A program made the translations under genes and the position numbers. A stretch of DNA of 64,000 bases from a virus: positions 1 to 64,000 of IMG/VR virus record IMGVR_UViG_3300025407_000799. One strand, given 5' to 3'. Positions 1,373 to 56,700 of the stretch are shown here, piece after piece (positions within the stretch are counted from its first letter, which is position 1; every line of letters starts with the position of its first letter). A model generated the notes under the pieces. The model was given only the letters and a program-made list of their open reading frames with translations. It ran no database searches and was not told the origin of the DNA.

Positions 1373-2236
1373 ATGACTGATTATTACCAAACATTAGGTG
1401 TTAGCGAAGGTGCTAGCCCAGAAGAAATTAAACGAGCATACCGAAGCTTGGCTAATAAACATCATCCAGACAAGGGTGGGGATCAAGCCAAATTCAAAGA
1501 TATCAGTGTTGCTTATGAAAATCTAAGTGATCCGCAAAAGAAAGCTGAATATGATCAACAACGTATGTACGGCGGCGGACAACAGTTCCATTTTAATACA
1601 GGCCCTGGAGGTTTTGATCCATTTGGTCATATGTTTGGTCAAGGGTTTGGACAAGGTAGTCCATTTGGTGACATTTTTGGTCACATGCGTCAACAAGCTA
1701 GACGTAATAGAGATTTAAACATACAATGTCAAGTAAGTTTTATCGATAGTTATACCGGTAAGCAGTTAGAAGCAAATTACAGACTACCAAGTGGACGTAA
1801 TCAAAATGTTGTTATTAACGTGCCGGCTGGTATACAAAACGGAGATACTATCCGTTATAACGGTCTAGGCGACGATAGTGTTCCTAATGCTCCACGTGGA
1901 AATTTAAATGTTACTATTATTGTAAATCCAGATCCAAACTACGAAAGACGTGGAGATGATGTGTTTACAAAAGTTGATATTACACCTATCGAAGCTATGA
2001 TTGGAACTAAGAAAACTGTTAAGACATTAGGTGGTCAAAGTTTAACTCTTGAAATTAGAGCAGGAGTTGAAACAGGAGTAGAGTATGCTAGTCACGGAAA
2101 TGGATTTCCGAATGTAAATAATGGGCAGAAGGGACGATTTGTTAGTGTAGTAAACATTAAAACTCCTGCTGTAACGGATCCACTTTTAGTAGCTGAACTA
2201 GGTAAACTCAATAATGCAATTAGTCAAAAGTACTGA
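1373..2236 (+). CDS. dnaJ: DnaJ-family co-chaperone, class B (CbpA-like, no zinc finger)
   Basis: J domain with HPD (KHHPDKGG), G/F-rich linker, DnaJ C-terminal domain; no CxxCxGxG repeats. Confidence 0.92.
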   Translation: MTDYYQTLGVSEGASPEEIKRAYRSLANKHHPDKGGDQAKFKDISVAYENLSDPQKKAEYDQQRMYGGGQQFHFNTGPGGFDPFGHMFGQGFGQGSPFGDIFGHMRQQARRNRDLNIQCQVSFIDSYTGKQLEANYRLPSGRNQNVVINVPAGIQNGDTIRYNGLGDDSVPNAPRGNLNVTIIVNPDPNYERRGDDVFTKVDITPIEAMIGTKKTVKTLGGQSLTLEIRAGVETGVEYASHGNGFPNVNNGQKGRFVSVVNIKTPAVTDPLLVAELGKLNNAISQKY

Positions 2237-2726
2237 TCAAATATTAAAAACTTGTGCCCAACCTTGGATTTTCGAAACCGATAAAGATTTTGAAGATGCT
2301 CGACAGCTAGAAATAGACATGGTTCAGCTTATGATTGAAAGTAACGGCATTGGCTTGGCTGCTAATCAAGTTGGACTACTTAAAAGAGTATTTGCAATTC
2401 TTCTTAAGGATCAAGTTCCGTTCTGCATGTTCAATCCGCAAATTGTTTCAAACACACCAGATTTTGTAAACGGGGAAGAAGGTTGTTTGAGCTTTCCTGA
2501 TTTATTTTTACCAGTAAAAAGATACAATTTGATTACCGCCGAATACTTTGACAGGGCGGGAAAAAAGTGTATAATAGATTTAAATGGAATAGATTCTAGA
2601 TGTTTCCAACATGAATTGGATCATTTAAATGGAGTCTGTTTTGTTGAAAAAGTTAGCCCGTTAAAGTTAGCAATGGCAAAAAAGAAACTATTAAAAAGAG
2701 GAAAAAGTAATGGTCGAACCAAGTGA
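2214..2726 (+). CDS. def: Peptide deformylase
   Basis: All three PDF motifs: GIGLAANQ, EGCLS, HELDH. Confidence 0.95.
   Translation: MQLVKSTDQILKTCAQPWIFETDKDFEDARQLEIDMVQLMIESNGIGLAANQVGLLKRVFAILLKDQVPFCMFNPQIVSNTPDFVNGEEGCLSFPDLFLPVKRYNLITAEYFDRAGKKCIIDLNGIDSRCFQHELDHLNGVCFVEKVSPLKLAMAKKKLLKRGKSNGRTK
2548..2575 (+). promoter_or_regulatory. Sigma70-type promoter inside def, upstream of clpA
   Basis: TTGACA (2548-2553), 16-nt spacer, TATAAT (2570-2575). Confidence 0.65.
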
Positions 2727-5001
2727 TAACCTACAAGCAGTTTTTGAAAGGGCAATCGAAACCGCTAAAAAATTGCATCACGAATATTTAACAATCGAGC
2801 ACTTGATGTTTGCTATGTTAGCCGACGAAAGTTTTTCTGCCGCCTTGACAGGCTTTGGAAGTAATACAGACGCTCTTAAACAAGATTTAACCGATTATTT
2901 GCAGAACAAATGCAGTGAGTTTACAATACCTGATGTAGTTGTTAAACCTAAAAAAACACAATCAGTCGAACGTGTTCTTAACCGTGCGTTCACACAAGTC
3001 CTATTCAATGGACGTCAACAAATAGAACCAACAGATGTTTTCTTGAGCATGTTTGGAGAAAAACGTAGTTGGGCGTTTTATTACATTAATAAAAACGGTA
3101 TCGATAAAGATAAGTTTAATGATTATATCAATAATAATATTGAAATCGAAGAAGAAGGACCTGCCGATGGTCAAAGTGACAAGGCGCTCAAGGCATTCAC
3201 TACTAACTTAAATGACGAAGTTACTAAGAAGAAAATTGATCCAGTTATTGGACGTATTGACGAATTAGAAAACATTGCACTAGCATTAGGTCGTCGTAGT
3301 AAAAACAACGTAATCCTTGTAGGAGATCCAGGTGTCGGTAAGACAGCCATAGCAGAAGGTCTAGCCTACAATATTGTTAATGGTGCTATTCCTGATTTCC
3401 TAAAAGAATATAAGGTATACAGTTTAGATATTAGTGCTATGCTTGCTGGCAGTAAATATCGTGGTGACTTTGAAGAACGTTTTAAACTAGTTATCAAAGC
3501 TCTACAAAAGAAAGGCAAGACTGTTTTGTTCATTGACGAGGCACATATGATCTCTGGCGCAGGATCTGCTAGCAACTCAGCTAACGACCTAGCTAACATG
3601 ATGAAACCTGCTCTAAGCAAAGGCAACATTAAAGTTGTGGCCAGTACTACATGGGAAGAATATCGTAAACACTTTGAAAAGGATCGTGCGTTGATGCGTC
3701 GATTCCAACGCATTACTGTTGACGAGCCAACTATGGAAGTTACTAAGCAAATTCTTAAAGGTATTAAGAAATATTACGAAACATTCCACAATGTTAAAAT
3801 CCGTGATGATGCTATTGATGCTGCTATTAAGTTGTCAATTAAGTATCAAACAGATAAGAAATTGCCGGATAAAGCAATTGATTTGATCGACGTTGCTTGC
3901 AGTCGTTTTAACTTGAAACTTGCAGATGAAAGAATCATCGGCGAGCGTGAAGTACAATACGAACTTGCTAAGATGATTCAAATGCCAGAAGAAAAGATTA
4001 TGGAAACTGAATCTAGCAACCTTGCTACTCTACAGGATAACTTACAAGCAGAAGTTTTTGGACAAGATCTTGCAGTTACAGAAGTTGTGGACAAGATCAT
4101 GGTTGCTCAAGCAGGTCTTAAATCTGAGAATAAGCCTATTGGATCGTTTGTATTCATGGGGCCAACTGGTTGCGGTAAGACTGAAACAGCTAAGTCACTG
4201 GCCAAGCACTTGGGTGTTAAGTTGCTACGTTTTGATATGAGTGAATATCAAGAGAAGCATAGTATCAGTAAGTTGATTGGTAGCCCTCCAGGTTACGTTG
4301 GCTTTGAAGAAAACGCAGGTTTGTTGATTACACAGATTCAAGAGAATCCAAATGCTGTATTATTGTTTGACGAAGTTGAAAAATCGCATCCAGATGTAAC
4401 AACTGTCTTGTTGCAAATGATGGACAATGGTTTTATTACTGGTTCAAATGGTAAACGTGCAGATTGTCGTAACTTAATTCTTATTCTTACTACAAATGCT
4501 GGTGCTCAAGATGCTGAAAAGAACACTATTGGCTTTGGCACACAAGAAAAAGAATACAGTGATAAAGATTTGAAGAAGTTCTTTACTCCAGAGTTCCGTA
4601 ATCGTTTAGATGGCATTATGACGTTTAACAAGCTGAACAAAGAATCTATGGTTAAAGTTGTTAATAAATTTATCGATGAACTCAAAGCACAAGTTAAAGA
4701 CAAAGGTGTTAAGATTAAAATCAATAAAGAAGCAACTGAATGGTTAATTACCAAAGGATTTGATCCTAAAATGGGTGCTCGACCATTACAGCGTGTTATC
4801 GATAAAGAAATCAAACGCAATCTTGCTAAGATGATGTTGTTCGGTGCATTGAAGAATGGCGGTGGCGCAAGTATTACATTAGAGGGTGATCAACTAGTAA
4901 TAGTAGCAACTCCTAAAGAAGTTAAAATTCCGCTGTTGGCAATAGATCCACCAAATACTGGCATTGAAATTGTAGAAGAAAATGCTGTACAAGACAACTA
5001 G
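2710..5001 (+). CDS. clpA: ATP-dependent Clp protease ATP-binding subunit ClpA
   Basis: Clp N-domain; two AAA modules (GDPGVGKT/FIDEAH; GPTGCGKT/LFDEVEK); IGF ClpP-docking loop; no ClpB middle coiled coil. Confidence 0.92.
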   Translation: MVEPSDNLQAVFERAIETAKKLHHEYLTIEHLMFAMLADESFSAALTGFGSNTDALKQDLTDYLQNKCSEFTIPDVVVKPKKTQSVERVLNRAFTQVLFNGRQQIEPTDVFLSMFGEKRSWAFYYINKNGIDKDKFNDYINNNIEIEEEGPADGQSDKALKAFTTNLNDEVTKKKIDPVIGRIDELENIALALGRRSKNNVILVGDPGVGKTAIAEGLAYNIVNGAIPDFLKEYKVYSLDISAMLAGSKYRGDFEERFKLVIKALQKKGKTVLFIDEAHMISGAGSASNSANDLANMMKPALSKGNIKVVASTTWEEYRKHFEKDRALMRRFQRITVDEPTMEVTKQILKGIKKYYETFHNVKIRDDAIDAAIKLSIKYQTDKKLPDKAIDLIDVACSRFNLKLADERIIGEREVQYELAKMIQMPEEKIMETESSNLATLQDNLQAEVFGQDLAVTEVVDKIMVAQAGLKSENKPIGSFVFMGPTGCGKTETAKSLAKHLGVKLLRFDMSEYQEKHSISKLIGSPPGYVGFEENAGLLITQIQENPNAVLLFDEVEKSHPDVTTVLLQMMDNGFITGSNGKRADCRNLILILTTNAGAQDAEKNTIGFGTQEKEYSDKDLKKFFTPEFRNRLDGIMTFNKLNKESMVKVVNKFIDELKAQVKDKGVKIKINKEATEWLITKGFDPKMGARPLQRVIDKEIKRNLAKMMLFGALKNGGGASITLEGDQLVIVATPKEVKIPLLAIDPPNTGIEIVEENAVQDN

Positions 5002-5611
5002 ACGTCTCTTTAAAGGCATATACCAGTACAAAATAGTGCTGGTATGTGCCGGTTCGCATTGGTTTCGCTCAGGTAATATAAGCGAAGCGTTTGCAGAATT
5101 ACAAAAAATAGATCTACAGTCAAATCAAAAAAATATACCGTATCGCAATACGTTTATTAAAACACGAGAAGATTTAGACTATGCTTTTAGTCTAGCAACT
5201 GTGTTAAATCAAATGAAAGATTTTGAATTACGTGTTGAGTCTCCATGGATTTCAATCTATACCAATGCTAAAAAAGATATAACTAAACTCTCTAAGCTAG
5301 ATGAAACTAAAGTAAAGTATATTTCTGAGCCAGCTAACACAAATCTTAGTGCAGATACTATAATCATGCCTAAAATGAACTTTGATTATCGTATTACACT
5401 GGGCAAAACTAACCAGCCTAACCCAGCATTTATAGACTGGGCAAACTCTAGTAAAAAATGCAAACTAACTAAAAGCTGTATTAGAGATCTAGGAAAACCT
5501 CGTAGTTGGGGTGGGACACATTTCTACATTACAGGCGATAACAATCTTCTATTAGCTAAAATGCACTTAGGTGGTTCCATAGCAAAGATAGAGCGTATAG
5601 TTAAAAACTAA
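4982..5611 (+). CDS. Hypothetical phage protein
   Basis: 209-aa ORF overlapping the clpA stop. Confidence 0.75.
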   Translation: MLYKTTRRLFKGIYQYKIVLVCAGSHWFRSGNISEAFAELQKIDLQSNQKNIPYRNTFIKTREDLDYAFSLATVLNQMKDFELRVESPWISIYTNAKKDITKLSKLDETKVKYISEPANTNLSADTIIMPKMNFDYRITLGKTNQPNPAFIDWANSSKKCKLTKSCIRDLGKPRSWGGTHFYITGDNNLLLAKMHLGGSIAKIERIVKN

Positions 5612-5625
5612 AGCCTGTCAAAAGC

Positions 5626-5633
5626 GATAAATA
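5626..5633 (+). promoter_or_regulatory. T4-like late promoter
   Basis: GATAAATA in the intergenic gap (T4 late consensus TATAAATA). Confidence 0.65.
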
Positions 5634-5679
5634 CTCTAACCGCAGAGTTATCTGCTGATATTACGTTACGGGCTTAAAA

Positions 5680-6051
5680 ATGCGCATACAAGACTTATTA
5701 GAAGGGCATCATTTTAAAGATAGCGATTTTGTTGTCAATAAAGGTGAAAAACGCGAGATCAATTTCGATCTAGCTGAAGATCTGATGCATTTCATGCACA
5801 ACGATGACGATGTGTACCGCCGTCATTTGTATCCAAGCCTATCATTTTGTATTGATAGAGCTAAATCCAAACAACCTACAAAGAAAAGTATATTCGGGCC
5901 AGCTGTTGAAAGCAGTTACAAATTATACGTTAAAAAATTTCCTATACGCGAACTACCAGACGAATTAGACAAAGAATTATGTAATGAAATCTGTGAAAAA
6001 CTTCACGAGGAATTTAAAGAACATTTAAGCGACGGCAAGTACAAGGACTAA
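5680..6051 (+). CDS. Putative capsid-internal protein (CTS-like N-terminus MRIQDLLE)
   Basis: First gene after the late promoter; N-terminus ends in LLE like T4 internal-protein propeptides. Confidence 0.7.
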   Translation: MRIQDLLEGHHFKDSDFVVNKGEKREINFDLAEDLMHFMHNDDDVYRRHLYPSLSFCIDRAKSKQPTKKSIFGPAVESSYKLYVKKFPIRELPDELDKELCNEICEKLHEEFKEHLSDGKYKD

Positions 6052-6053
6052 CA

Positions 6054-7913
6054 ATGCTATTAAGAGAATTATTCGTTAGCCTTCATAATAAAAAAATCAT
6101 TAACGAAGGCGGTAATATTTGGCCTGACACAGATCATTTCGATCAAGCCATTGCTGCCAATTTAGCTCACGAAACTGACAAGTACCTAAACAGTCTTAGT
6201 CTTAAAGTATATCTTATCGGAAGTGCTGCAACTCCAACACCTGGAAAAATGAGCGGTGATTTAGATGTTATGACTGATATGAGTCATCTTATGAATCATT
6301 TTAAAATTAAAGATCCTAAGACAGCACGTATTGAGTTAGAAAAATACTTACAAGGTCAAGGTTTAATGACTAAACGTACAGGTGTTACTGTACATATTCG
6401 TTTACCATATGAAGATAAATTCTATCAAGTAGATATTAAAGCCGTTGTAAACGCAGAGAAAGTACATAAATTTCATGTACACAATATTCCAGCAGGAAGT
6501 CCTTACAAAGGTGTACACAAACAAATGATGATGAATGCGCTAGCAAGTAGTCAAGGAATGTTGTGGTCGCCAGATGAAGCGTTATATGCTAGAGATGCTG
6601 AAGGTAAGAAATCAAATATGATTAGTGATGACTTAGATGTTATTGCTAAAAAATTGTTAGGACCGCATGCCAAGGAATCAGATTTAGGCAGTGTTGAAAG
6701 TATTTTAAATGCTATTCCAGATCCAGCACGTAAGAAGGAAATATTTGACAAAGCAAGTAGTGGTGCAAGTTGGCAAGCTGTTACTCCAACTACAATAAAC
6801 GAAGCCGCTGCTCCAACTGTTGGCCGTAAATATCAACATATCGAAGATTTAGTATTCACGAATGGTAGTACAGGCGGATTGCATGCCGTTGAACGACTAC
6901 GTCATATGACCAGTAAGGGTGGCAGCATAGAATTAAAATGGGATGGTAGTCCAGTTATCTATTGGGGTCGTGATGAACACGGTAAGTTCCATATGTTTCC
7001 AAAAAATGCATGGGACTATATGAAGCGTGGTACTACTCATACTAAGAGTGGTGTAACTACCATGATGAACGACCCAGATGATGTTGCTATGTTTATTTTA
7101 GGAACTGGAACCTTACAGCCTGGGCAAGAAGAACAGCGCAAAGCATTTGCAAGAGGATTGTCAGACCTTTGGCCATACTTTGAACAGATTAGTCCTAAGA
7201 CAGGGTATATCGAAGGTGGGATATTGTTTAGTCCATTAAAGCCGGCGGTGTTAAATCCTAGCACACACGAATACGACTTTACTCCTAACATAACAAGTTT
7301 CCATATTCCTGCAACTAGCGAATTAGGTAAAAAAATTGCTAAGGCAAAAATAATGGTTGCTGCCACTGGATACTATACTCATATCGGAGCAGATGAAACA
7401 CGTTATCCTAATGCTGAAAAATTATCAACATCAGATATAATTGTGCAAGGTACAACTTATGTAGAAAATGCTCCTCAAGTAGATTCTACTGGTTTAGATC
7501 ACGCAGAAGATTATATTAAACAGAATAAATCAGCTATCGATAGTTTCTTAGCAGGACAACCTGGACTAAGTAAACCTGGAGATGTATTATATACATTCTT
7601 TAATCAAAATTTACGAGTTGCAGGTGTCAAACAACATTTTGCACAATGGGCTCAATCTAAATTAAGTAACGCACAAGCACAAAAAGTTTTAAGCCATCCT
7701 GGACTCGATGCTGTGTTGACCGCTGTTGAATTATTAACACATGAAAAAATGAAAGTAATTTCAGCACTAAGTAGTGGAACACACGGTGGAATCCGACAAA
7801 CAAAGCCCGAAGGTTATGTACAAGCTCACCCTGGTGGTAAGTTTAAAAACGACATACCCGGACAGTTTGTTAAAACAATCGACCAAGCCAACTGGGCTCC
7901 AAGGAAAGACTAA
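6054..7913 (+). CDS. Two-domain protein: Pol-beta-type nucleotidyltransferase + KxDG ligase-like domain; probable virion cargo
   Basis: LIGS...SGDLDV...YQVDI (GS/DxD/D). Second domain has ELKWDGSP, YIEGG, PEGYV, FVKT. Domains are separated by TINE/A; N-terminus MLLRELF...IINE. Confidence 0.7.
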   Translation: MLLRELFVSLHNKKIINEGGNIWPDTDHFDQAIAANLAHETDKYLNSLSLKVYLIGSAATPTPGKMSGDLDVMTDMSHLMNHFKIKDPKTARIELEKYLQGQGLMTKRTGVTVHIRLPYEDKFYQVDIKAVVNAEKVHKFHVHNIPAGSPYKGVHKQMMMNALASSQGMLWSPDEALYARDAEGKKSNMISDDLDVIAKKLLGPHAKESDLGSVESILNAIPDPARKKEIFDKASSGASWQAVTPTTINEAAAPTVGRKYQHIEDLVFTNGSTGGLHAVERLRHMTSKGGSIELKWDGSPVIYWGRDEHGKFHMFPKNAWDYMKRGTTHTKSGVTTMMNDPDDVAMFILGTGTLQPGQEEQRKAFARGLSDLWPYFEQISPKTGYIEGGILFSPLKPAVLNPSTHEYDFTPNITSFHIPATSELGKKIAKAKIMVAATGYYTHIGADETRYPNAEKLSTSDIIVQGTTYVENAPQVDSTGLDHAEDYIKQNKSAIDSFLAGQPGLSKPGDVLYTFFNQNLRVAGVKQHFAQWAQSKLSNAQAQKVLSHPGLDAVLTAVELLTHEKMKVISALSSGTHGGIRQTKPEGYVQAHPGGKFKNDIPGQFVKTIDQANWAPRKD

Positions 7914-9094
7914 TGCGTTTAAGACAACTTTTTGAAAACTTAGATCGCACCGGCGAAGGAAAAGCTGCTGTAGTTGGTTGGGGTCGCGGCATGGGTCATA
8001 AAGGACACATGTTCTTAGCTGACGCTGTTATTACACAAGCTGAAGAAACTGGCGCTGATCCTTATTTTGTTGTTAGTCGTACTATAGGTAAAGACGATCC
8101 AATTACTCCAGAAGAAAAATTGCACATCTATAAAAAAGTATTTCCTAAACATGGACATATTTTTCATACCGCTACAGAAGAAATGCCAGATTTAACTCGT
8201 GTACTAACACAGTTAAACAAACATGGTTATACAGATGTTACGGTAGTTGTTGGTGCAGATCAAAAAAATGCTTTAAGTTATGTAACACAGTATAACGGTA
8301 AACCAGATAAAGCAGGTAATGTACCATTTAATTTTAATAGTTTAAATGTTATTAGTCGTCAAGAGACTAATAGTAAGTATTCCCAAGAAGAAGGACCACG
8401 TGCTACACCAATGCGCGATATACTTAAAGATCCTAATGCCAGTGACGATGAAAAATTCCAAGCATGGCGTGACGCTATGAGTCCAGAACTAAGCGATGAT
8501 GAAGTTCGCGACATGATGACAAAAGCTGGACAACGCATGGCAGATCCTACCTTTGGTAAAAAGCCTAAAGTAGCAAAGAAAGAAAAGGCTGTAGCGGAAA
8601 ACGTTACTTCGATTAAATATGCTAATAAGGTAATTAGAGAAATGAGAGCACAAGAATTTGTCCGTCGTCAATTAAATGAAAAAGCAACTATAACAGCAGC
8701 TACACCAGATGCACCGTATGCCGGTCAAGGTGATAGCGATGATTTAGCAGATGAACACTTGGCTGGTTTAAACCATGCTGTTAGTTTTCCATCTATCAGT
8801 ATGAACAAATCAAATGGTAGTTCTTATCTACAATATAGATTTGGTCTAGCAATGGCTGGAGCACACCCTAATGCAAACGACCATATGCCTGTGCCTATGT
8901 CTACCGGAGGAGCATTTAGCGGAGATCCATTAATTGCACCGTTCAGCGATCAGGATTTAGAAATTGTTAAAGCTGCAGGCAAACATATTGGTGCCGGTAA
9001 AATGACTAAATTGGCAGATAGAAGTAATGAAATGCCAAATACTAATAAAGTTAGTCCTATAGCTAAACCTAAAAAGAACAAATACGGAATATAA
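7913..9094 (+). CDS. HxGH nucleotidyltransferase (cytidylyltransferase-like) fused to a second CTS-bearing module starting at 8642
   Basis: WGRGMGHKGH, VVVGAD, RATPMR (SxTxxR-like); N-terminus MRLRQLFE; internal MRAQEF at 8642. Confidence 0.8.
   Translation: MRLRQLFENLDRTGEGKAAVVGWGRGMGHKGHMFLADAVITQAEETGADPYFVVSRTIGKDDPITPEEKLHIYKKVFPKHGHIFHTATEEMPDLTRVLTQLNKHGYTDVTVVVGADQKNALSYVTQYNGKPDKAGNVPFNFNSLNVISRQETNSKYSQEEGPRATPMRDILKDPNASDDEKFQAWRDAMSPELSDDEVRDMMTKAGQRMADPTFGKKPKVAKKEKAVAENVTSIKYANKVIREMRAQEFVRRQLNEKATITAATPDAPYAGQGDSDDLADEHLAGLNHAVSFPSISMNKSNGSSYLQYRFGLAMAGAHPNANDHMPVPMSTGGAFSGDPLIAPFSDQDLEIVKAAGKHIGAGKMTKLADRSNEMPNTNKVSPIAKPKKNKYGI
8614..8630 (+). promoter_or_regulatory. Internal late-promoter-like TAAATA and AAGG RBS ahead of in-frame ATG 8642
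   Basis: TAAATA at 8614-8619, AAGG at 8627-8630, ATG at 8642 encoding MRAQEF. Confidence 0.45.
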
Positions 9095-9473
9095 AATGCG
9101 AGCCAAAGAGTTTATTACCGAACATACAGGAAAGCATCATGATAATCACATGGTAGCAGCTCAAGGTACTCGTAAGGTTCGCGATCCTGGAGGTTACTAT
9201 CCTAGTTACCATCAAATGCGCATGGGTATAGTAGTTGGTACTATGGACGGTAAAGGTAATATACCAAAAAATGTTCCGCATGAAAGTTGGATGGGTCCAT
9301 ATTGGACGCAACATCCTTGGACTGAAATAGAACATAAGATGTTCCAAGATGCTAAAAAAGTCATCCCAACAGAAGATCATGAAGTAATACCTTGGAAGAA
9401 AAGTGAAGAGCCAAGTGATACACACAAAGTTAGCCCAATAGCTAAATCTAAAAAGAACAAATACGGAATCTAA
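9047..9473 (+). repeat. Imperfect 48-nt direct repeat (9047-9094 and 9426-9473) encoding KVSPIAK[P/S]KKNKYGI-stop
   Basis: 44/48 nt identical by manual alignment. Confidence 0.9.
9096..9473 (+). CDS. Putative capsid-internal protein, paralog of the 8642-9094 module
   Basis: MRAKEFITE resembles the T4 CTS MKTYQEFIAE; shared basic C-terminal tail. Confidence 0.8.
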   Translation: MRAKEFITEHTGKHHDNHMVAAQGTRKVRDPGGYYPSYHQMRMGIVVGTMDGKGNIPKNVPHESWMGPYWTQHPWTEIEHKMFQDAKKVIPTEDHEVIPWKKSEEPSDTHKVSPIAKSKKNKYGI

Positions 9474-9474
9474 G

Positions 9475-9912
9475 ATGGACGAAAAATATCATTTAGCACT
9501 TAAAACAGCATTTGCTAGTGAATATGCCTTTGCATTAAAGGCGCAAAACTTTCATTGGAATACAGAAGGACCTTTATTCTATCAACAACATTTATTGTTT
9601 GAAAGAATTTATGATGAAGTTTACGGAAGCATTGATACGTTTGCTGAACAATTACGTGCTTTACAAGTTTATACTCCAGCAAGTTTAGCTAAATTTAGTA
9701 TGTTATCTAAAGTAGAAGACGAAAATGCTGTACCAGATTTTCACGGAATGTTAAGCGAGTTATTAGAAGATAGTGAACGTATGGCTAATATCTTTCGTAT
9801 TACATTTACTATGGCAGAAGAACACGGCGATCACGGACTAAGTAATTTTTTAGCAGATCGTCAAGATGCACATAAAAAACACAGCTGGATGTTAAGAGCG
9901 AGTTTAAAATAA
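9475..9912 (+). CDS. dps: Dps / ferritin-like DNA protection protein
   Basis: NFHWN..G..F...H..FE..Y....D..AE ferroxidase pattern; C-terminal HSWML. Confidence 0.9.
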   Translation: MDEKYHLALKTAFASEYAFALKAQNFHWNTEGPLFYQQHLLFERIYDEVYGSIDTFAEQLRALQVYTPASLAKFSMLSKVEDENAVPDFHGMLSELLEDSERMANIFRITFTMAEEHGDHGLSNFLADRQDAHKKHSWMLRASLK

Positions 9913-10148
9913 TGGATGAACTAGCACAACTTAAGAAGTTAGCAGGCATTAACGAGTTTAAAGGCCTACAACCTTACGGCGGTAGCAATATCAGTATAAC
10001 TGGTACAGAGAAAGCAAAGATTATGCGTGAACAAAATATACAGCCTGGAACTGAAGAATGGTTCAAGTTGTGGTTTAGTTTACCTAAATTTATGAATGGC
10101 GAACGTGCTGTAGGTACAGGATACAGAGGAATTAAAAATGAAAATTAA
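9912..10148 (+). CDS. Small conserved phage protein with ELAQLKKLAG motif
   Basis: Coupled TAATG start; MDELAQLKKLAGINE; IQPGTEEWFKLWF. Confidence 0.75.
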   Translation: MDELAQLKKLAGINEFKGLQPYGGSNISITGTEKAKIMREQNIQPGTEEWFKLWFSLPKFMNGERAVGTGYRGIKNEN

Positions 10149-10971
10149 TGAATTAGAAGAAAGTTACAGACGTAACAGCCTAACAAATTATTACGATAGC
10201 GATGGCAATGATTTGCGTGGCGGTGCTAGCGATGAAGCTAATTTATGGTACAAATACGATCCGCAAGACGGCAGACTTAAACAACGAATGATTGCCGGGC
10301 ACGAAGAACGTGCTGCACGTAACGCAGGATTCAGAGATGGGCAAGAGGCTGCATTAAGAGTACACGGCATTGTTAGGAGCAAATATCATCACGGTAAGTG
10401 GATACAAAATCAAGGCGGCAAGTGGATTGAAGTACATCCGTTTGGTAACTCAGAAATTGAGAATGAAGGTATAGCTAGTGCGGCTATGGCAAAATTGCCT
10501 GGTTTTCTAAATACCATAGGAAAAGATTCACAATCGATTGCTAAAATACAAGATCAAATCACTCAGCGCATAGTACGTGCAGGTGAAGGACATCCTGCTG
10601 TGGCTCATTTGAATGATGCACATAGTTGGCTAAGCCAGATGTATAAGAATCCTACCGAAGAACAAGCCAAGGCATTTTACCAAGCTGTTCAAAAAGCCAA
10701 TGGTGCTGGTATTAGAGAATCGGCTACAGCAGGTGCTACCAGTGCCGCTAACATCGGAACCGTAGATGCTCCGCATTTAAGTCCAGGAAAAGCCCGTGGA
10801 AAGAAAAGCTATATTGGTAGTCCAGGGCGTAGTGGCACAAAAGCACCCCCACAGCCTAAGGTTGTACAACCTAAAAACAAGAACGGAACAGCCAAAAACG
10901 GTTTAGATATTAAAGGTACCAGCTTATTTGGTGGTCCTAAGAACGAAGCACAAGTCATCAAAAGACGCTAA
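10138..10971 (+). CDS. Putative capsid-internal modular protein
   Basis: MKINELEE/S, IENE/G, IRE/S; basic C-terminal module. Confidence 0.7.
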   Translation: MKINELEESYRRNSLTNYYDSDGNDLRGGASDEANLWYKYDPQDGRLKQRMIAGHEERAARNAGFRDGQEAALRVHGIVRSKYHHGKWIQNQGGKWIEVHPFGNSEIENEGIASAAMAKLPGFLNTIGKDSQSIAKIQDQITQRIVRAGEGHPAVAHLNDAHSWLSQMYKNPTEEQAKAFYQAVQKANGAGIRESATAGATSAANIGTVDAPHLSPGKARGKKSYIGSPGRSGTKAPPQPKVVQPKNKNGTAKNGLDIKGTSLFGGPKNEAQVIKRR

Positions 10972-10974
10972 ATA
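10968..10974 (+). promoter_or_regulatory. T4-like late promoter
   Basis: CTAAATA about 25 nt upstream of ATG 10999; GGAG RBS in between. Confidence 0.55.
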
Positions 10975-10998
10975 TATAAAGATAAACGGAGTATACTC

Positions 10999-12492
10999 AT
11001 GCCACCAGAATTAGATAACATGGAACCAGAAATGAACATGGACAACCAAGAAGGGGAAGTAATTGGAACGCACGGCGACACAGATCGCGAAGGTGCAATG
11101 GCCAAAGCTGACCTACACAAACTAGCCACTTATGCTACAAAACTAGGCGAACAGATCCAAGACGAAGATCAATTAGAAGCATGGGTACAAGCTAAGATTA
11201 CCAAAGCAGCTGATTATATCGCTAGTGTGTATCATTATCTAGAATACGAAATGAAGTTTACAGAGTATGCTCATCATTTAGATAATAGCGATACCTTAAG
11301 CGAAAGTCAAAAACGTGCTCTTAAAAACAAGTTAATGGAAGCTAAGGCTAAAGTTAAAGAACTTAAGAAAACTCAAGCTGAAAAGATTAAGTCTAAAGAA
11401 GAAAAAATTGACGAAAGTTTGATGGACCCATGCGGACACTGCGGTGGTTCAGGACATGTTGAACGTCAAATTCCTGGACATGTAAAAGCTAAAGTAGAAA
11501 AACATAAAAAACTACATAACTTTATTGATAAAAAAATTAAAGATGCTAATAAAAACGGAATCCCAGATGACGAAGAAGTTGACGAAGATTTTGATGCATT
11601 AAAGAAAACAGGCGATAAGACTAAAACAGCTGCAGGCGGTATAGTTACTAAGACTGACAAAGGTATCAAACACGAGCGTCCTTCATCAAGTTATGATGAT
11701 GGCGGTGATGAGTTAGATTCAATTGCTAAATCAGGCAAGGGCACAAAGAGTCATGCTAAAGCTAAAGACTCTGCTACTAAGAAAGCTGAAAAGTCAAACG
11801 ACATCAAACTACCTAAGCACACAGGCAATACATGGGGCATGAAAGGTGGCGAAAAGTTTGGTAAGAAGATGGAAGAAGGCAAAGAAAAGAAAGCCGACAA
11901 AGACTACGACGGTGACGGTAAAGTAGAATCTGGTAAAGATGAATACTTAGGTAGCCGCATTGCTGCTGCTAAGAAGGCTGGCAAATTAAAAGAAGCCGTC
12001 AAGATGTGCAAAGAATGCGATATGCCTGTAACAGAATGCAGTTGCAAGTCAGTTAAAGAAAGTGCCAAGCCAAGCGCAGGTTTAAGCAAGGCTAAAAAGT
12101 CTGCTACAGTTAAAAAGGCCAAAGCAGGCGGCGACATTGGTAAACCAGGTAAAGGTTTTGACAAACTAGCTAAAAAAGCCGGTGGTGGCGAGAAAGGTGA
12201 GAAAATTGCCGCGGCCGCTATGTGGAAGAACATCAAAGAAACTACTGCTTACATTGCTGAAAAAGCAAAAGCTGCTAAACCAGATTTCTTAGACATGGAC
12301 AAAGACGGTGACAAGAAAGAGCCAATGAAGAAAGCTGTTGCTGACAAGAAGAAAGAGGCTGTTAAAGAGTCTACAGATTTTAGTCGCTTACAAGAGCTAA
12401 CAGGTCGCTTGAATCGTGCAGAAAAGCCAGCACTAGTTGAAAACCGTGAGGTAGATCAAATCCGTGCATTAACAAAACGTTTATTGGGATAA
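10999..12492 (+). CDS. Lys/Glu-rich modular head/core-like protein with EF-hand-like and Cys-rich minimodules
   Basis: LEAWVQAKITKAADY domain; DYDGDGKVESGKDE, DMDKDGDKKE, DANKNGIPDD loops; CGHCGGSG and CKEC...CSC; many [ILVM]xE sites. Confidence 0.75.
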   Translation: MPPELDNMEPEMNMDNQEGEVIGTHGDTDREGAMAKADLHKLATYATKLGEQIQDEDQLEAWVQAKITKAADYIASVYHYLEYEMKFTEYAHHLDNSDTLSESQKRALKNKLMEAKAKVKELKKTQAEKIKSKEEKIDESLMDPCGHCGGSGHVERQIPGHVKAKVEKHKKLHNFIDKKIKDANKNGIPDDEEVDEDFDALKKTGDKTKTAAGGIVTKTDKGIKHERPSSSYDDGGDELDSIAKSGKGTKSHAKAKDSATKKAEKSNDIKLPKHTGNTWGMKGGEKFGKKMEEGKEKKADKDYDGDGKVESGKDEYLGSRIAAAKKAGKLKEAVKMCKECDMPVTECSCKSVKESAKPSAGLSKAKKSATVKKAKAGGDIGKPGKGFDKLAKKAGGGEKGEKIAAAAMWKNIKETTAYIAEKAKAAKPDFLDMDKDGDKKEPMKKAVADKKKEAVKESTDFSRLQELTGRLNRAEKPALVENREVDQIRALTKRLLG

Positions 12493-12496
12493 TCCA

Positions 12497-13336
12497 ATGG
12501 ACATGAAGCGCATTCTACAGGCGATGGATGGAGTGTCTACAAAGCCTGTAGAAGGCGCAAATGACATGAAAAAGTTCCTTCAGGTTGTAACTGAAGGGGC
12601 TAATCCTCATAAAGTTAGCTTGCCTGTTCAAATGGCCATGCAACACTATCAGAAGCCTAAAGAAGAACCTACTAGACCTGTAGGACGCGAACTTACTATT
12701 AGCAAATATTTTCATAAAGTAGAAGAAGAGCTTGCTGAACAAAAAACTGAAAAGCAACAATTAATAAAACAATACAGTCAAACTATTGCTGACCGTGTTT
12801 TAATGAAAGAATCTGCATCAAAAAAACTTGCAGAACATGAAATCCCCGGACATAGTATGGGATTCACAGGCGGTGTCGGTCCTGGTATGCAAGATTATGT
12901 AGTCGATGAAGCTCCATTAGATTTTGATAAAGAAAATCCAGCATCCAGTACTATATACGGACATAAGAGTAATCCTGGATCTATTGAATATAGAATTATG
13001 CGAGCTCGCGCACAACTAAAAGATTTAGCAGAACGAGCACAAAGTAACGAATTAATTGTATGGGAAGGCATTTCACGTCAATTCCCTGAACTGGCCATGA
13101 ATATCGAAGAAATACGTCATGGTATTGAAGAACTAGCTAAGATCCGTAAAGGCGGTGGACGTAGAGTCCACAATATACCTAAGGAAATTGGAGAAGCTGT
13201 ACTAGCTCCTATCAAACCAGCTACACCAAAAGCAATTAAACCAAAAAAGAAAACTAGTGTTTGTCGAACAGGACAAGTACAAACAGGAATGCAAACCAAA
13301 GATGGGAAGCTAGTTCCCAAGTGTTCAATTAAATAA
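12497..13336 (+). CDS. Putative capsid-internal modular protein
   Basis: MDMKRILQAMD...DMKKFLQVVTE; several xxE/[GSA] sites; C-terminal C...LVPKC module. Confidence 0.7.
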   Translation: MDMKRILQAMDGVSTKPVEGANDMKKFLQVVTEGANPHKVSLPVQMAMQHYQKPKEEPTRPVGRELTISKYFHKVEEELAEQKTEKQQLIKQYSQTIADRVLMKESASKKLAEHEIPGHSMGFTGGVGPGMQDYVVDEAPLDFDKENPASSTIYGHKSNPGSIEYRIMRARAQLKDLAERAQSNELIVWEGISRQFPELAMNIEEIRHGIEELAKIRKGGGRRVHNIPKEIGEAVLAPIKPATPKAIKPKKKTSVCRTGQVQTGMQTKDGKLVPKCSIK

Positions 13337-13339
13337 ATA
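13330..13339 (+). promoter_or_regulatory. T4-like late promoter
   Basis: TAAATAAATA upstream of the AGGGA RBS and ATG 13360. Confidence 0.55.
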
Positions 13340-13359
13340 TAAAATCGTTAGGGAATAAT

Positions 13360-15783
13360 ATGAACTTAAGAGATTTGATGACAAAATTAGATACTATTGC
13401 AGAAGCAGATGATGCTAGAGCACAGTATGACAAATTTAAAGCCGATGACGCTCGTGCAGGAGCTATTACACAAGTTAAAACAATGCTAAAGCCAAATGGT
13501 GGCGGAAACTTTATCGATCCTAAGGACGGTATTGTTAAATGGCAAGAACAAATGCAAGGCGATTCAGGTGGGCCTGGTAGCGTCAGAGAGTTTCCATTCG
13601 ACTGGTATAAGAAAGGTCAAGAATCAAAGTTTTTTGATATTTTAAAAACTGCTGGATTAGAACTAGTTCCAGTTGATAGAAAAAATTTGTTTGGTACAAG
13701 TCAAGTAGTAGGTATTAAAGGCGGGCCACAAGCATTAGCTAATTTAGATAAACCTCAAACTCCTACAGCACCAACAGGTCCAACTGCAGGACAGCAAAAA
13801 GGTCCACAAGACGATATTGCAAAATTAGATGCGTTAACTGCTCAATTAGAAGCTAGTTTGAAAGGTCAAGGTCCTGCTCCAGATACAACAACAACACCAA
13901 CTACTACAACTACTACTAATCCACCAGTTAAGAAAGACGAACCACAAAGTACTGGTAAGAAAGTTGCTACAGGGTTGGGAATTGGTGCTGGTGCATTGGC
14001 TGGACAACAGCTAGCTAAAAAAGCTGGTATGGGTGGATTTGGTCAAGCAGGTGCTGCAGGCATCGGCGGTGCTATCGGTGGGTTAGTTCCACAGGCTTTT
14101 ATGAAAGAAGGCATTGAATTTAACTCAAGCATGGCTCAATCTTTAACTGAAAGTTTTGGTTATGAGTTTGAAAATGAACAATTAGACGAATACAGTATGC
14201 AACAGTTTGGCCAGGATGCTGGCGACTTTGGTCGTGGTGCATGGAACGGTGCAACATTAGGCACAGGCGATAACATTGTTGCCGGTGTTAAAAGTGCATT
14301 TGGTCCAGGCACATACAAAGATGAATTACAAAAACAAATGGCTTCTAGTCAAGAAGCTGAAAAACGTAGTCCTTGGTTATACGGTGCTGGTAATGTCGCT
14401 GGTAGTATTGCAGCTCCAATTCCTGGAGGTGCTGTTGCAGGTGGATTGATTAAAGGTATAAGTACAGGTGCTAAATTAGCTCGTGCTGGAACATCGTTAG
14501 GTGTTAATTTGGCTGCACAAAAAGGTGTAGATACACTTAAGAACAAAGCTGATATCAACACACTAGCACAAGGTGGCGATCAAAAATTAGCACAATTACA
14601 ACAAGTTATTAAAACTATACCAGATGGTAAATTTGGCCCTAACACACAAAAAGCTCTAGCAGCTTGGCAAGCAGAACAAGGGTTACCTGCAACAGGTAAA
14701 CCAGATCCTGCAACTTACGCTAAAGCTGGTATTGCAGAATCTAAAGCAACAACTGTTGCAGAAGATATCAAAGCATTACAAAACAAACTAGCAATGATCG
14801 AAAGCGGTCAATGGCGTTTAGAAGAAGATGCAGACTATCGTGTATGGTTAACAGAAGATAATACTGTTATCGATGATTACGGTAATCAAATTGTAGACGA
14901 AAATGTTCTGGATGCAATTGAATGGGATCAACAACGTTTAGACGAATTAAATTTAGGTGGAATAGGCAAGGCATTAGGCCGCGGTTGGGATAAAGTAGCT
15001 AACGTTGGCAGAAACTTTGCAGGTGGACTTGCTGGCAAAGATGCTACAGGCAATTTGATTAAAGATACTGAAAAGAGTTTTGCTAACAGAATGGCTACTG
15101 AACCTATGAAAAACGGTAAACTTCGTAGTCCTGGTCAAATTGCACGTGATTCAACAAACGCTCGCGGTACAGCCAATATGGCTAATAAAGCCGCTAACTG
15201 GGTTGGTCAAAATCCAGGTAAGACTGCTTTAGGTGCTGCAGCACTTGGAGCAGGAGGAATTGCAGCCGCAAATGCGTTAGGCGGAGGCAGTGCTAGTGAA
15301 ACAGGAACAACTACCGGGGGAGGTAGTGGCGGTGGCGGTGGAGGAGCTAATTCAGATCCAAATATGCCACAAGCACCAGCGGGAGATACTCCAGGAACTA
15401 CTCCAGCTGCTGGAAATTTAACTCCAGACCAACAAGCATTGATTAAGCAAATAGAAGAATTGATGTCACACGATTGGGCTGATGATAAAGATTGGATCAA
15501 AGCAACTGGACACGCTCGTGTTGTATTGGATAAAGCTACTAAAGCAAATCCTCTACAAACAGCGATGGATGCTAAGAACGATGCGGGCGCAACTACTCAA
15601 ACAGCAAGTACACCGGCATCTACTCCAGCTACCGGTCAAAGTGCTGCACCAACAGGTGCAACTACTCCAGATCCAACATTGAAAGTTTACAAAGATGGCG
15701 GTGGTGCAGGAGCTGCATCTAACCCAGCTGTTAAAGAATCGGAAGATGAATTGGCACGTTGGTTAAGAATCGCTCGCGGTTAA
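13360..15783 (+). CDS. Large Gly/Ala-rich virion protein with peptidoglycan-binding domain and glycine-zipper segments (candidate ejection protein)
   Basis: LQQ...PDGKFGPNTQKALAAWQAEQGLPATGKPDPAT (PG_binding_1-like); GxxxGxxxG hydrophobic stretches; MNLRDLM...IAE N-terminus; C-terminal ELARWLRIARG. Confidence 0.7.
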   Translation: MNLRDLMTKLDTIAEADDARAQYDKFKADDARAGAITQVKTMLKPNGGGNFIDPKDGIVKWQEQMQGDSGGPGSVREFPFDWYKKGQESKFFDILKTAGLELVPVDRKNLFGTSQVVGIKGGPQALANLDKPQTPTAPTGPTAGQQKGPQDDIAKLDALTAQLEASLKGQGPAPDTTTTPTTTTTTNPPVKKDEPQSTGKKVATGLGIGAGALAGQQLAKKAGMGGFGQAGAAGIGGAIGGLVPQAFMKEGIEFNSSMAQSLTESFGYEFENEQLDEYSMQQFGQDAGDFGRGAWNGATLGTGDNIVAGVKSAFGPGTYKDELQKQMASSQEAEKRSPWLYGAGNVAGSIAAPIPGGAVAGGLIKGISTGAKLARAGTSLGVNLAAQKGVDTLKNKADINTLAQGGDQKLAQLQQVIKTIPDGKFGPNTQKALAAWQAEQGLPATGKPDPATYAKAGIAESKATTVAEDIKALQNKLAMIESGQWRLEEDADYRVWLTEDNTVIDDYGNQIVDENVLDAIEWDQQRLDELNLGGIGKALGRGWDKVANVGRNFAGGLAGKDATGNLIKDTEKSFANRMATEPMKNGKLRSPGQIARDSTNARGTANMANKAANWVGQNPGKTALGAAALGAGGIAAANALGGGSASETGTTTGGGSGGGGGGANSDPNMPQAPAGDTPGTTPAAGNLTPDQQALIKQIEELMSHDWADDKDWIKATGHARVVLDKATKANPLQTAMDAKNDAGATTQTASTPASTPATGQSAAPTGATTPDPTLKVYKDGGGAGAASNPAVKESEDELARWLRIARG

Positions 15784-53725: not shown

Positions 53726-56700
53726 TTATCCTTTGTCTAATGTTACATTACCGCTGTCGAATGTTACTTTAGAACTATCTATAGTTAGTTTTCTGTTGTT
53801 GTTAAATCCAGTATACCATATACCCGGAGTGGCCTTAAGGAAAGATGCAATATTACTTACATCATTCAATATATTAACAGGATTAGCAGAATGGTCGCCG
53901 TCCCACGACTGGCCGCTCTTTCTAATTATCGTAATTTGAGTACCTTGTGTAACTACGTTTGCCAATGTTATTACTGATCCTGCTGTAGTTACATTAGAAA
54001 CAACAAATTCTTTAGCAAACTTTTCATCGCCGTCTTTAATTGTACCAACTGGATCTGTATCAGAGATAGGAATTGTTGGACTGTAAGGAGCTAAAGTAGG
54101 ATTGTAATGAACATAATCATATTTTTTCAATCTTCTTAAGTCATCCTGTCCGCCTACAAATACTTCAAATAATGAATTATAGTCTGTAAAAGTAGGATCT
54201 AATGTAAATCCAAGGTCTAGATTGAATGTTGTAGTTACTCCATCTGAAATAATTGGCCTCACATCGGTAATATCACTGTACGGGATAGTAGAATCTGTAC
54301 CAATATCTTGTACACTTGTTCCTACATTACTATAAGATCTAACACCAGTTCCTAAAGTTCCCCTACGTAACTGACTTAATATATTAAGATCTTTCTTAAA
54401 ATATTCGATACGTTCACCGGCAATTTCTATCACACCTGGTTTGTTAGTTGAAGGGTTTGGTGTTGTTAAAACTGTTCCATCTTTAACTACAATTTGTGTG
54501 TCATACCAATTTAGCTCTTGTGCCAATAGTGTATGTCGGTTGAGTGCCAGTCTCTTATAAACAGTTCTGTTCAACATGTCTTTAAACTGCATGTATGAAA
54601 TTCCAGGTTGTGGTACATTGTTGTTAAACAATAACACTGAAATCTTATCAGTTGGGGCAGGTGGAACTGTTAATTGCACACTTTGGTGATTTGATAGCAT
54701 CTGATAATCAATTAACGGAGTTAACAAACGTCCGTTTTGAATAATCCAAGCATATTCTTCGTCAGGTACAGTATGATTTAAATTGATAATTCCACGTGTT
54801 GCATCTTGATAACGATAATAATCAACAGATCCTGGTATCGAAGATACTAATGAAGAAATATTAACTGTAGTTCTTTCAAGATCTAATATATCATGATTAT
54901 AAGATGTTAATACTTGAATTTTATGACTGCTATCATAAGAATTATTTAATGTTAAATCTCCAGTTGTAGAATCATAAGAATACTCTGCATTGGTTCTAAT
55001 ACTAACAACTAATTGTTTTCCTATATTCTTATCACGTATTTTTTTACGCAACGTCACTGTAAGGCCAGTTAGGTCAACAACATATTCTTTATTCAAAGCT
55101 ATTAACTTTTTATCAATATACACCCTAACATCTGAATACTGAACAGCATTTAAAGTAAACTGGTCAGCTGAAATAGTATAAGCAAGCGTATCAGATGTTA
55201 TTGTAAAATAACTATTAGCAGGAGCTTCCAATACAGTATTGTCAACTATTACAATCATATTTGATTCTGCAGGTAAACCAACACCAACAGGATTATCTAA
55301 TTTAAATGTATTCTGAGGTATTGCATACAACGGTAATAACTCAGTTTGCGTAACTGCAACCGTTTGAATAGCACTTGCTACGATAATATAGTTTATTACA
55401 GATCCTGCTGCAGGAGTTACACTAAAACGCAAACCAATCATACCGCCTAACGAGTATGTATTGTCTGTTTTAAACAATATAGGATTTACTAATACACCAT
55501 TTAAATAAATTACAGATGAAACAGTATCCAGCCATTTAGCTCTGGTGATAAATTCTGATGTAATTCCATCACAAATAAAATAATCACCGTCTAAAATATT
55601 TTGACCATTAATACCAATAGTAAAAATACTAATAATTTTATTAGCTGCAGGTGGTTGAACAAAAACAATTCTGTTCTGATTAAATGAAACATTATAATCC
55701 ACACCCGCTACTTTAATTACATTATCAACTTTTACTACAATCGCACCTGGATTGTTTAATAATTGACTGTATGCAAATGTTAATAAGCTACCATCGCCAA
55801 CATAGTTGTCAATTTTAACTTTTGCTCCAGCATTGTATGTTTGATCGTATACTTTAATAGCCAATGTATCAACTACTTGTCCTGGCATTACTTCTTCTGG
55901 AGCAGGACTAGATGTTGGTGTTACTAATCCGTCACCATCAATGATAATATCATCTGCTAAAATACCAGTTGCTGTAGTATAAGCTAAATCGCCGCCAGTA
56001 ATCGATGTATCATAATCTTGATCAGCAGGTGCAACTGATCCATCACTAGATGCTTGACGAATAACAAATTCATCACCAACAGTCACTGGATAACTATCAG
56101 ATATTGTCACAACTGTATTTGCTGTAGAAGAATTAACCACTTGTCTAATTGTAGCAGTTGCTGTAGCGGTTTCAATACCTTGTTCAAATGTAATAGTTGG
56201 ATTATTTAAATATCCACTACCTGGATTTGCTAATACAACAGAGTCCACACCATAAACTAAAGTAATTGTTGCATTTTGACCAGTGCCTCCCATTAATGAT
56301 TGGCTGGCTTCATCAACTCCACCTTCATATATTGTTGAAGACAATATTTGTAATTCATCAATTGGTCCAATTTCTGTAAAGCTGGCTGTTCTTGTTACTT
56401 GTAAAATAACAGCACTCGAACCAGTAATAGTAGTCGAAGCGGTAGTTAATTTACGATTTAATGTCCAGAAACTGCCATTGCCAGTTCCATGACTAGACGG
56501 ATCAAGGCCTGTAATGTATGTTATATCAACGCTAGAAACTGTACCAACTACAAATGTTTGCGATAACACCGTGGTGTTTTCATAAGAAACAGAATGGTCA
56601 GTAACATCAGTAACTATATATTTTCCGTTAAATCCATTAGGAAATCCAGATACTTCTGTATACTGGCCTAATGCAAATGGTATACTAGCACGAGTTGCAA

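Follow-up and report, generated by a model that had tools for sequence, protein, structure and literature searches.

What function might be served by three nucleotidyl-transfer domains that are encoded one after the other, in two overlapping genes, beside the DNA polymerase gene of a large phage? The question is raised by IMGVR_UViG_3300025407_000799, a 97.8-kb contig from a giant lake phage of the T4 type that has not been cultured. The window analysed here is the first 64 kb of this contig. Two of its open reading frames (ORFs), termed ORF A and ORF B (Table 1), carry the motif sets GS..DLD..D, KWDG/EGYV/K and HxGH, which had been recognized in an initial annotation made from the sequence alone. 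We propose that their products are enzymes which this T4-type phage expresses late and carries as cargo in its head, and which may be injected as a kit that fills and seals DNA; this proposal as a whole is held with about as much doubt as confidence. On its separate parts, sequence features make packaging of the enzymes in the virion probable, and the role in filling and sealing DNA is put forward tentatively, at somewhat less than an even chance.

The AlphaFold2 model of ORF A, based on an 81-sequence alignment, has a mean predicted local distance difference test (pLDDT) value of 92.6, and values below 50 are found solely at residues 1–16 and 246–252. The N-terminal domain of the model displays the palm and thumb subdomains of family-X DNA polymerases. 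It also has the family-X pattern hG[GS]-x(9-13)-D-x-[DE] and, on a later strand, the third catalytic Asp. These residues are G56-S57, D69-L-D71 and D127, and they are invariant or nearly so in 22 diverse sequences. Among the Foldseek matches of the ORF A model to the PDB, chains of Pol lambda and Pol beta predominate. The 8-kDa deoxyribose phosphate (dRP)-lyase and fingers (HhH) domains are absent; the domain consists of residues 19–245, and the structural match begins in the palm. As this absence is shared with Pol X of African swine fever virus (ASFV), the ORF A domain is grouped with the minimal members of the family. ASFV Pol X (174 aa) is likewise a minimal palm and thumb, with ∼12% sequence identity to the phage domain. 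From the model, a minimal family-X polymerase (PolX) fold is very likely.

Searches of PDB sequences (phmmer, hmmsearch) gave nothing significant, whether the query was ORF A, ORF B or one of the domain profiles (A1, A2), and the best non-significant matches of the A1 profile were to the Tailor TUTase (E 0.05) and to CdnC/CdnD (E 0.28). With the PolX domain as the query, tblastn found nothing at E ≤ 1 among the 50,697 phage genomes on deposit. The initial annotation had listed CCA-adding enzymes and CD-NTases as possible identities of this Pol-beta-fold domain, and both are rejected by the structural ranking. That the domain makes signalling nucleotides or decoys in the manner of a CD-NTase is highly improbable, as the matches to PolX are the stronger ones and take in the thumb, whereas those to CD-NTases are restricted to the shared palm.

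The C-terminal domain of ORF A has DUF6267 as its sole Pfam match and none in NCBIfam, and a literature search by family name found no publication on DUF6267. Motif I, K295-W-D297-G298, is invariant in 36 sequences of 25–64% identity. Motifs IV (E586-G587-Y-V) and V (K607, in F-V-K) follow downstream in order and are also invariant. The distance from motif I to motifs IV and V, ∼290 residues, is unusually long because of a helical insert. In a wide VIA-align search the nearest solved folds were the RNA ligases NgrRnl (Rnl5, 5cot) and T. brucei REL1 (Rnl2-type, 1xdn), and structures other than RNA ligases did not match this domain. The match is middling, with 175–180 residues aligned; the adenylyltransferase fold of these two enzymes can be aligned across the whole of DUF6267, and their motifs I, IV and V are in the same order. 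An hhalign comparison of the DUF6267 profile with T4 Rnl2 gave a probability of 0.05. Neither an OB-fold nor any other known C-terminal clamp is found in the ORF A model, and the helical insert (∼residues 479–573) may take the place of the clamp domain. All told, a ligase-like fold is likely. The tblastn search of the phage records with ORF A gave one weak match, the DUF6267 gene of DSL-LC02. A 591-aa ‘cytidyltransferase-like’ protein of S-PM2 also matches the DUF6267 fold.

The likeness to NgrRnl and REL1 raises the question of whether the substrate is RNA. T4 repairs tRNA with Pnkp and Rnl1, and this precedent favours an injected RNA or tRNA repair kit in which the ligase would seal cut tRNA or mRNA and the Pol-beta-fold domain would rebuild 3′ ends, to counteract anticodon nucleases or other RNA-cleaving defences. 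As the latter domain is PolX-like and not CCA-adding-like or CD-NTase-like, gap filling and sealing of DNA is the better reading, and the RNA kit appears rather unlikely.

The model of ORF B has pLDDT values of ∼90–98 at residues 11–220 and shows the nucleotidyltransferase fold of the HIGH superfamily. Thus, structure prediction and fold search, the check that had been recommended with the initial annotation, find real folds in both proteins. The motif H29-K-G-H32 follows a strand at 18–24, and GWGRGMGHxGH is invariant in 30 sequences. The second superfamily motif, [ST]xxR, is found in R163-A-T165-P-M-R168, of which RATxxR is invariant. No Pfam or NCBIfam model matches the domain at E 0.1, and it is on the model that the HxGH fold is assigned, with high confidence. 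The fold is closest to NMN/NaMN adenylyltransferases, and NMNAT, FAD synthetase (10.3) and PPAT (9.8) lie within 1 Z of each other. An NAD+-centred counter-defence, where an NMNAT-like enzyme restores NAD+ in depleted cells and the other two enzymes are secondary, would give this domain the leading role. Its probability is low: FAD synthetase and PPAT tie with NMNAT, no Nampt/NadV or other NAD salvage partner is seen in the 97.8-kb contig, and the tight, recurrent fusion to the ligase and PolX domains is left unexplained.

Residues 244–393 of ORF B form a separate small module that is paralogous to the product of the next gene, 9096–9473 (33% identity over 92 aa, E 1e-8). Both modules end in a basic tail, SPIAK[PS]KKNKYGI. 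This tail is retained at the C-terminus of related proteins of ∼1000 aa in which ORF A and ORF B are fused, and DNA binding or a signal for ejection are possible roles.

The three domains are recurrently linked. An exhaustive HMMER search gave 542 relatives, where PolX and DUF6267 are found as standalone proteins, fused to each other in either order, or joined to an HxGH domain on either side. The ∼1000-aa fusions are found in some close relatives and have NIAE↓NINRTGEG at the joint (arrows mark predicted cleavage here and below). Clusters of DUF6267-CTP_transf_like and DUF6267-Cu/Zn superoxide dismutase (SOD) proteins are present in the ESM Atlas, and in T4-like cyanophages DUF6267 lies directly upstream of a ‘cytidyltransferase’ gene. 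Metagenomic contigs that bear relatives reach ∼346 kb. A blastn search of the locus against the phage records found no match. In the lake phage the two genes overlap in the TAATG at 7911–7915, which the initial annotation took as translational coupling. Comparison of related loci, with 8-kb flanks, shows that in several (L004–L055) the ORF B frame stays open for a long way 5′ of the leader, within ORF A, with alternative starts such as MYKRIL... and MVGYDKL...; this is probably a chance open overlap.

How might such enzymes reach the virion? In T4, internal proteins enter the head by means of a capsid-targeting sequence, ∼10 residues at the N-terminus, and the protease gp21 cuts after L/I-X-E (PMC9026906). 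Cargo leaders and gp21 trimming are found in IPI, IPII, IPIII and Alt, and the N-termini of IPII and IPIII read MKTYQEFIAE↓A. Similar leaders are present in the 10-ORF block 5680–15783, which contains ORFs A and B: MRIQDLLE↓G, MLLRELF...IINE↓GG, MRLRQLFE↓N, MRAKEFITE↓H, MKINELEE↓S and MNLRDLMTKLDTIAE↓A. The core E-F-I-x-E is common to the T4 leader and to MRAKEFITE↓H. The leaders of the lake phage are one residue shorter than those of T4 or are of the type MxLRE[FL][LF], and they predict packaging from sequence. A position-specific scoring matrix (PSSM) was built from 32 homologue leaders taken from other phages and scored on 94 ORFs. Six ORFs of the block are in the top 10 (P 4.6e-5). The highest score (15.2) is that of ORF 9096, whose leader is the most T4-like, and ORF 5680 ranks fourth; its relatives begin MRI[QRNK]ELLE[GNS]. 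Relatives of ORF B start with MLLREFL, MNLRELL or MRLLQLIE. The best internal Met-started 9-mer of the contig (8.9) is at MRAQEF in ORF B. Position 8640, where the initial annotation had ended its feature (ORF A and the first 243 residues of ORF B), proves to be the last residue before this internal leader copy, IRE↓MRAQEF.

Shared N-termini can be explained in another way. The enzymes may be cytoplasmic, as late or middle/late replication and repair enzymes, with DUF6267, for example, acting as the sealing ligase where a gp30-type ligase is absent; the common starts would then be recombination-prone gene starts or translation signals and not targeting sequences. The location of the block, on the replication-gene strand and adjoining the DNA polymerase gene, fits this alternative. 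It does not account for the presence of the same type of leader on a head gene. The 80-aa ORF between portal and protease, in the position of gp67 (contig 92443–92685; L001:6444–6683), starts with MILRELF, the leader type of ORF A, and has three [LI]xE sites in its 80 residues.

The cleavage sites provide a further means to distinguish the two possibilities. The phage has a protease of the gp21 type in its head module (phrog_207, E 1.6e-57). In ORF A, [LI]-x-E is found solely at residues 3, 16 (INE↓GG) and 248 (INE↓AAAP), and in ORF B solely at 6 (LFE↓N), 241 and 254. The three ORF A sites and the first ORF B site coincide with disordered segments of the models (pLDDT <50), and the other two are in a helix of lower confidence. 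The claim that a cleavage site precedes each domain therefore stands, with residues 16 and 248 of ORF A and 6 of ORF B. In homologues of ORF A, [LI]-x-E↓GG is conserved at the leader end, and leaderless homologues begin with M-GGN. The leader of standalone DUF6267 proteins ends in E at the position of the linker site (MRAREFLLKE-AAP..GRKYQH compared with TINE-AAAPTVGRKYQH), and leaderless standalone homologues begin with M-..GRxxQH.

Within the domains, on the other hand, [LI]-x-E is depleted ∼5-fold. An average of 0.78 sites was observed compared with 3.9 expected in the ORF A domains of 96 homologues, 50 of which have none, and 0.16 compared with 1.07 in the HxGH domain of 118 homologues. 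The homologues are related and their counts are not independent, which is mitigated by the ClpA-like protein encoded nearby as a control: this has 11.9 sites compared with 9.9 expected in 37 related loci and shows no depletion. The whole-protein count of ORF A taken singly, three compared with 4.1 expected, is not significantly low; thus the weight rests on site placement and on the statistics across homologues. Depletion that spares the ClpA-like neighbour, together with retention of sites exactly at disordered leaders and linkers, is not expected of cytoplasmic enzymes.

The head proteins display a related pattern. The scaffold-position protein (contig 94326–95420; L001:8327–9418) has 19 [LI]xE sites compared with eight expected, an enrichment also seen in T4 gp22. 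The protease itself has five compared with 1.8 expected, near both of its ends, and the major head protein has just two, at residues 16 and 39. This distribution is consistent with a T4-like cleavage specificity, as predicted from these sequences.

At the level of transcription, the block appears to be late. The heptamer ATAAATA, which resembles the T4 late promoter box, is avoided in the window (eight copies compared with 32.8 ± 6.0 expected), and most copies in the 97.8-kb contig are situated just 5′ of structural genes. Plus-strand copies in the first 17 kb are found directly before ORF 5680 and ORF 13360. All 51 IMG/VR relatives with upstream sequence have exactly one ATAAATA in the 1200 nt before ORF A. 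The distance from the box to the 123-aa ORF is 52–53 nt in nearly all, and 40 and 62 nt in three. Despite variable flanks, GATAAATA is invariant among the 51. Retention of a late box in these relatives also argues against a cytoplasmic role. Immediately 3′ of the box is a hairpin, GCAGA-GTTA-TCTGC (∼5642–5655, within 5634–5679). The stem has other letters in relatives (ACAGA/TCTGT, CCAGTAG/CTATTGG, ATGCCA/TGGCAT, TACAG/CTGTA). This resembles compensatory change and may point to a transcript-stabilizing or regulatory 5′ stem loop; RNAalifold found no consensus in the 5′ leader, where the alignment register is poor.

Evidence from virions is available for cyanophage relatives of the block. The cyanophage cytidyltransferase (T4-GC190) is homologous to the HxGH domain: tblastn gives E values of 8e-11 to 4e-8 in 226 phage records, identity is ∼27–32%, and the PHROG families are 3041/395. 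It shares the neighbourhood of ORF B, with DUF6267 just upstream, and its own leader, MKKFSAFLNE↓A, is like a capsid-targeting sequence. In S-SM1 this protein had 25 peptide counts in purified virions, above those of the portal protein, and its block neighbours GC1453, GC1454 and GC1455 were likewise detected (PMC3037559 Table S8). GC1454 and GC1455 begin with MNLNE and MLSFKELQE↓K, and GC1453 does not have such a leader. Virions of S-CREM2 also contain the cytidylyltransferase (ORF154), and delivery with the virion was raised by the authors (PMC10665884). The cyanophages have no PolX domain (tblastn, E ≤ 1, 50,697 phage records), and their DUF6267 does not have a leader. The S-SM1 DUF6267 protein (SSM1_189, L058:1296–2270) has no [LI]xE in 324 residues, and its gene shares 14 nt with the start of that for the cytidyltransferase detected in virions.

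The mass spectrometry data thus place leader-bearing, syntenic S-SM1 proteins in virions, which a cytoplasmic role leaves unexplained, and they give indirect support to the virion delivery that had been guessed at in the initial annotation, whose functional guesses are borne out in part. In favour of the cytoplasm, the cyanophage DUF6267 has no leader and is undetected in S-SM1 virions, and soluble enzymes in virion preparations are possibly contamination. On balance, a cytoplasmic role is considered unlikely.

From these observations we infer the following course for the enzymes as head cargo. The block would be transcribed from the gp55-type late box (5627), and T4-type leaders would bring the products into the prohead core. 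There the gp21-type protease would cut after [LI]-x-E, remove the leaders and split the polyproteins at their disordered linkers. This would yield the minimal family-X polymerase, DUF6267 as a polynucleotide ligase, the NMNAT-like nucleotidyltransferase and the small module with the basic tail. Once mature, the enzymes would sit amid the packaged genome and reach the cell together with it. Prior to phage gene expression the polymerase may fill short gaps and the ligase seal nicks in the incoming genome, be it damage picked up outside the host or caused by its nucleases, and the HxGH enzyme may supply or regenerate an adenylylated cofactor.

Functional precedents for filling and sealing are provided by PgVPolX and by the Pol X/ligase pair of ASFV. 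PgVPolX, from Phaeocystis globosa virus, is a PolX fused to a ligase that fills and seals base-excision repair intermediates (PMC5537341). The order in one polypeptide, PolX then ligase, is that of ORF A. The PgVPolX ligase is LigA-like and NAD+-dependent, whereas that of ORF A belongs to an unrelated, uncharacterized family, and PgVPolX has dRP/apurinic-apyrimidinic (AP) lyase activity, whereas the block of the lake phage contains no dRP-lyase domain. The partner of Pol X in ASFV is an ATP-dependent DNA ligase of the classical kind that has an OB domain, and here it is DUF6267; the ASFV set performs base-excision repair in a non-phage virus, and no AP endonuclease partner is seen in the phage block.

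Several points weigh against injected fill-and-seal enzymes. Proteomic support for presence in the virion comes from the cyanophage cytidyltransferases and their block neighbours; the S-SM1 DUF6267 gene (T4-GC71), without leader, is absent from the virion protein list, and the S-CREM2 authors warn that abundant soluble proteins may co-purify (PMC10665884). An AP endonuclease, a glycosylase and a dRP-lyase domain are all absent from the block. The nearest folds to DUF6267 are RNA and not DNA ligases, at a match that is only middling, and NMNAT, FAD synthetase and PPAT are tied as matches to the HxGH domain. Many relatives begin ORF B with MLLREFLNRTGEGK and have no [LI]-x-E at the border of leader and domain, which makes cleavage at the ORF B leader uncertain.

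A stronger form of the proposal is a self-sufficient repair machine inside the capsid. PolX would fill gaps, and DUF6267 would be a new ligase family charged by NAD+ or another dinucleotide, which the NMNAT-like enzyme would remake from mononucleotide and ATP. If so, sealing would work even in cells whose NAD+ has been drained by defences, and breaks and gaps gathered by virion DNA in sunlit water would be mended. The Dps gene within the block and the DUF6267-Cu/Zn-SOD fusions hint at an oxidative-damage theme, which would fit such a machine. Nevertheless, it is quite improbable.

Table 1. Positions of the features of the cargo block and of its promoter region in the window
Feature	Position	Strand	Remarks
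Late-promoter-like box ATAAATA	5627..5633	+	47 nt 5′ of first block gene
123-aa ORF, first of late block, leader MRIQDLLE↓G	5680..6051	+	
ORF A, 619 aa	6054-7913	+	
ORF A leader, residues 1–18, MLLRELF...IINE↓GG	6054..6107	+	pLDDT <50 for residues 1–16
Minimal family-X DNA-polymerase-like domain (palm and thumb), ORF A residues 19–245	6108..6788	+	
Interdomain linker TPTTINE↓AAAP with [LI]-x-E site	6789..6803	+	pLDDT <50 for residues 246–252
DUF6267 ligase-like domain, ORF A residues 251–619	6804..7910	+	Helical insert between motifs IIIa and IV
TAATG stop/start overlap, ORF A/ORF B	7911..7915	+	Read from sequence
ORF B, 393 aa	7913-9094	+	
ORF B leader MRLRQLFE↓N	7913..7936	+	pLDDT <50 for residues 1–8; LFE at 6–8
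HxGH (HIGH-superfamily) nucleotidyltransferase domain, NMNAT-like, ORF B residues 9–222	7937..8578	+	
Lys-rich linker and internal leader copy IRE↓MRAQEFVRRQLNE↓K in ORF B	8579..8680	+	Low/moderate model confidence
Small C-terminal module of ORF B, ending SPIAKPKKNKYGI	8681..9091	+	Paralogue of next gene
125-aa paralogue of ORF B C-terminal module, leader MRAKEFITE↓H	9096..9473	+	

The genes of the block are tightly packed, with gaps of 1–2 nt or overlaps. A Dps/ferritin-like gene is found within it at 9475–9912 (Pfam Ferritin E 4e-19, phrog_3636), with neither a leader nor [LI]xE depletion. The 807-aa ORF of the region 13333–15783 starts at 13360, has its own ATAAATA box (13333) and the leader MNLRDLMTKLDTIAE↓A, and contains PG_binding_1 (E 6.9e-11). 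It is likely a virion-borne cell-wall enzyme; the ‘lysozyme murein’ virion protein of S-SM1 may be compared.

The plus strand, to ∼41.8 kb, carries genes for peptide deformylase, a ClpA-like ATPase, DNA polymerase and nucleotide modification. Directly upstream of the block, at 2214–5611, are the peptide deformylase and ClpA-like genes and a 209-aa ORF without assignment. The ClpA-like protein is full-length with two AAA+ domains (phrog_4871, E 4e-250), and no ClpP was seen. This unfoldase might conceivably take part in cargo loading. A function of the leaders as ClpS/ClpA N-degrons was considered and rejected, by inference, as neither the N-termini nor the new ones that cleavage is predicted to create (G, A, N) are destabilizing. 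Tail and baseplate genes are on the minus strand of the contig. They are accompanied by the gene of a 5460-aa late structural protein, at 53726–64000 and on to contig position 70108, past the end of the window. A giant virion protein of similar size, T4-GC969 (∼18.5 kb), is found in S-SM1 and relatives. The head module is at the far end of the contig in the order of T4: portal, gp67-position ORF, a 289-aa ORF, protease, scaffold-position ORF and major head protein.

The delivery system itself is known from T4 capsid-targeted cargo, and the virion-borne ‘cytidyltransferase’ of cyanophages has been noted before; enzymatic cargo of the present kind would be new. In the literature we found no description of the first domain as a PolX, of DUF6267 as ligase-like, of the polyprotein logic or of the site-depletion signature. 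The lake phage and T4 have in common a late-promoter-like box and variable, modular cargo genes. T4 cargo consists of small basic proteins, known for anti-restriction, or an ADP-ribosyltransferase, whereas here it would appear to comprise polymerase, ligase and a nucleotidyltransferase of the cofactor type, some of them made as polyproteins that have internal sites. The leaders could serve as packaging tags for cargo engineering in T4-type phages of hosts other than coli.

If the proposal is correct, DUF6267 gains a function and family-X polymerases join the phage repertoire. It could also explain why a ‘cytidyltransferase’ recurs among the proteins of cyanophage virions. A group of aquatic T4-type phages that is both large and abundant, with metagenomic homologues that number in the hundreds, would bring enzymes for mending DNA (or RNA) into the cell before gene expression begins. 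There would then be a testable link between the decay of virions in the environment, host nuclease and NAD-depleting defences, and the success of these phages.

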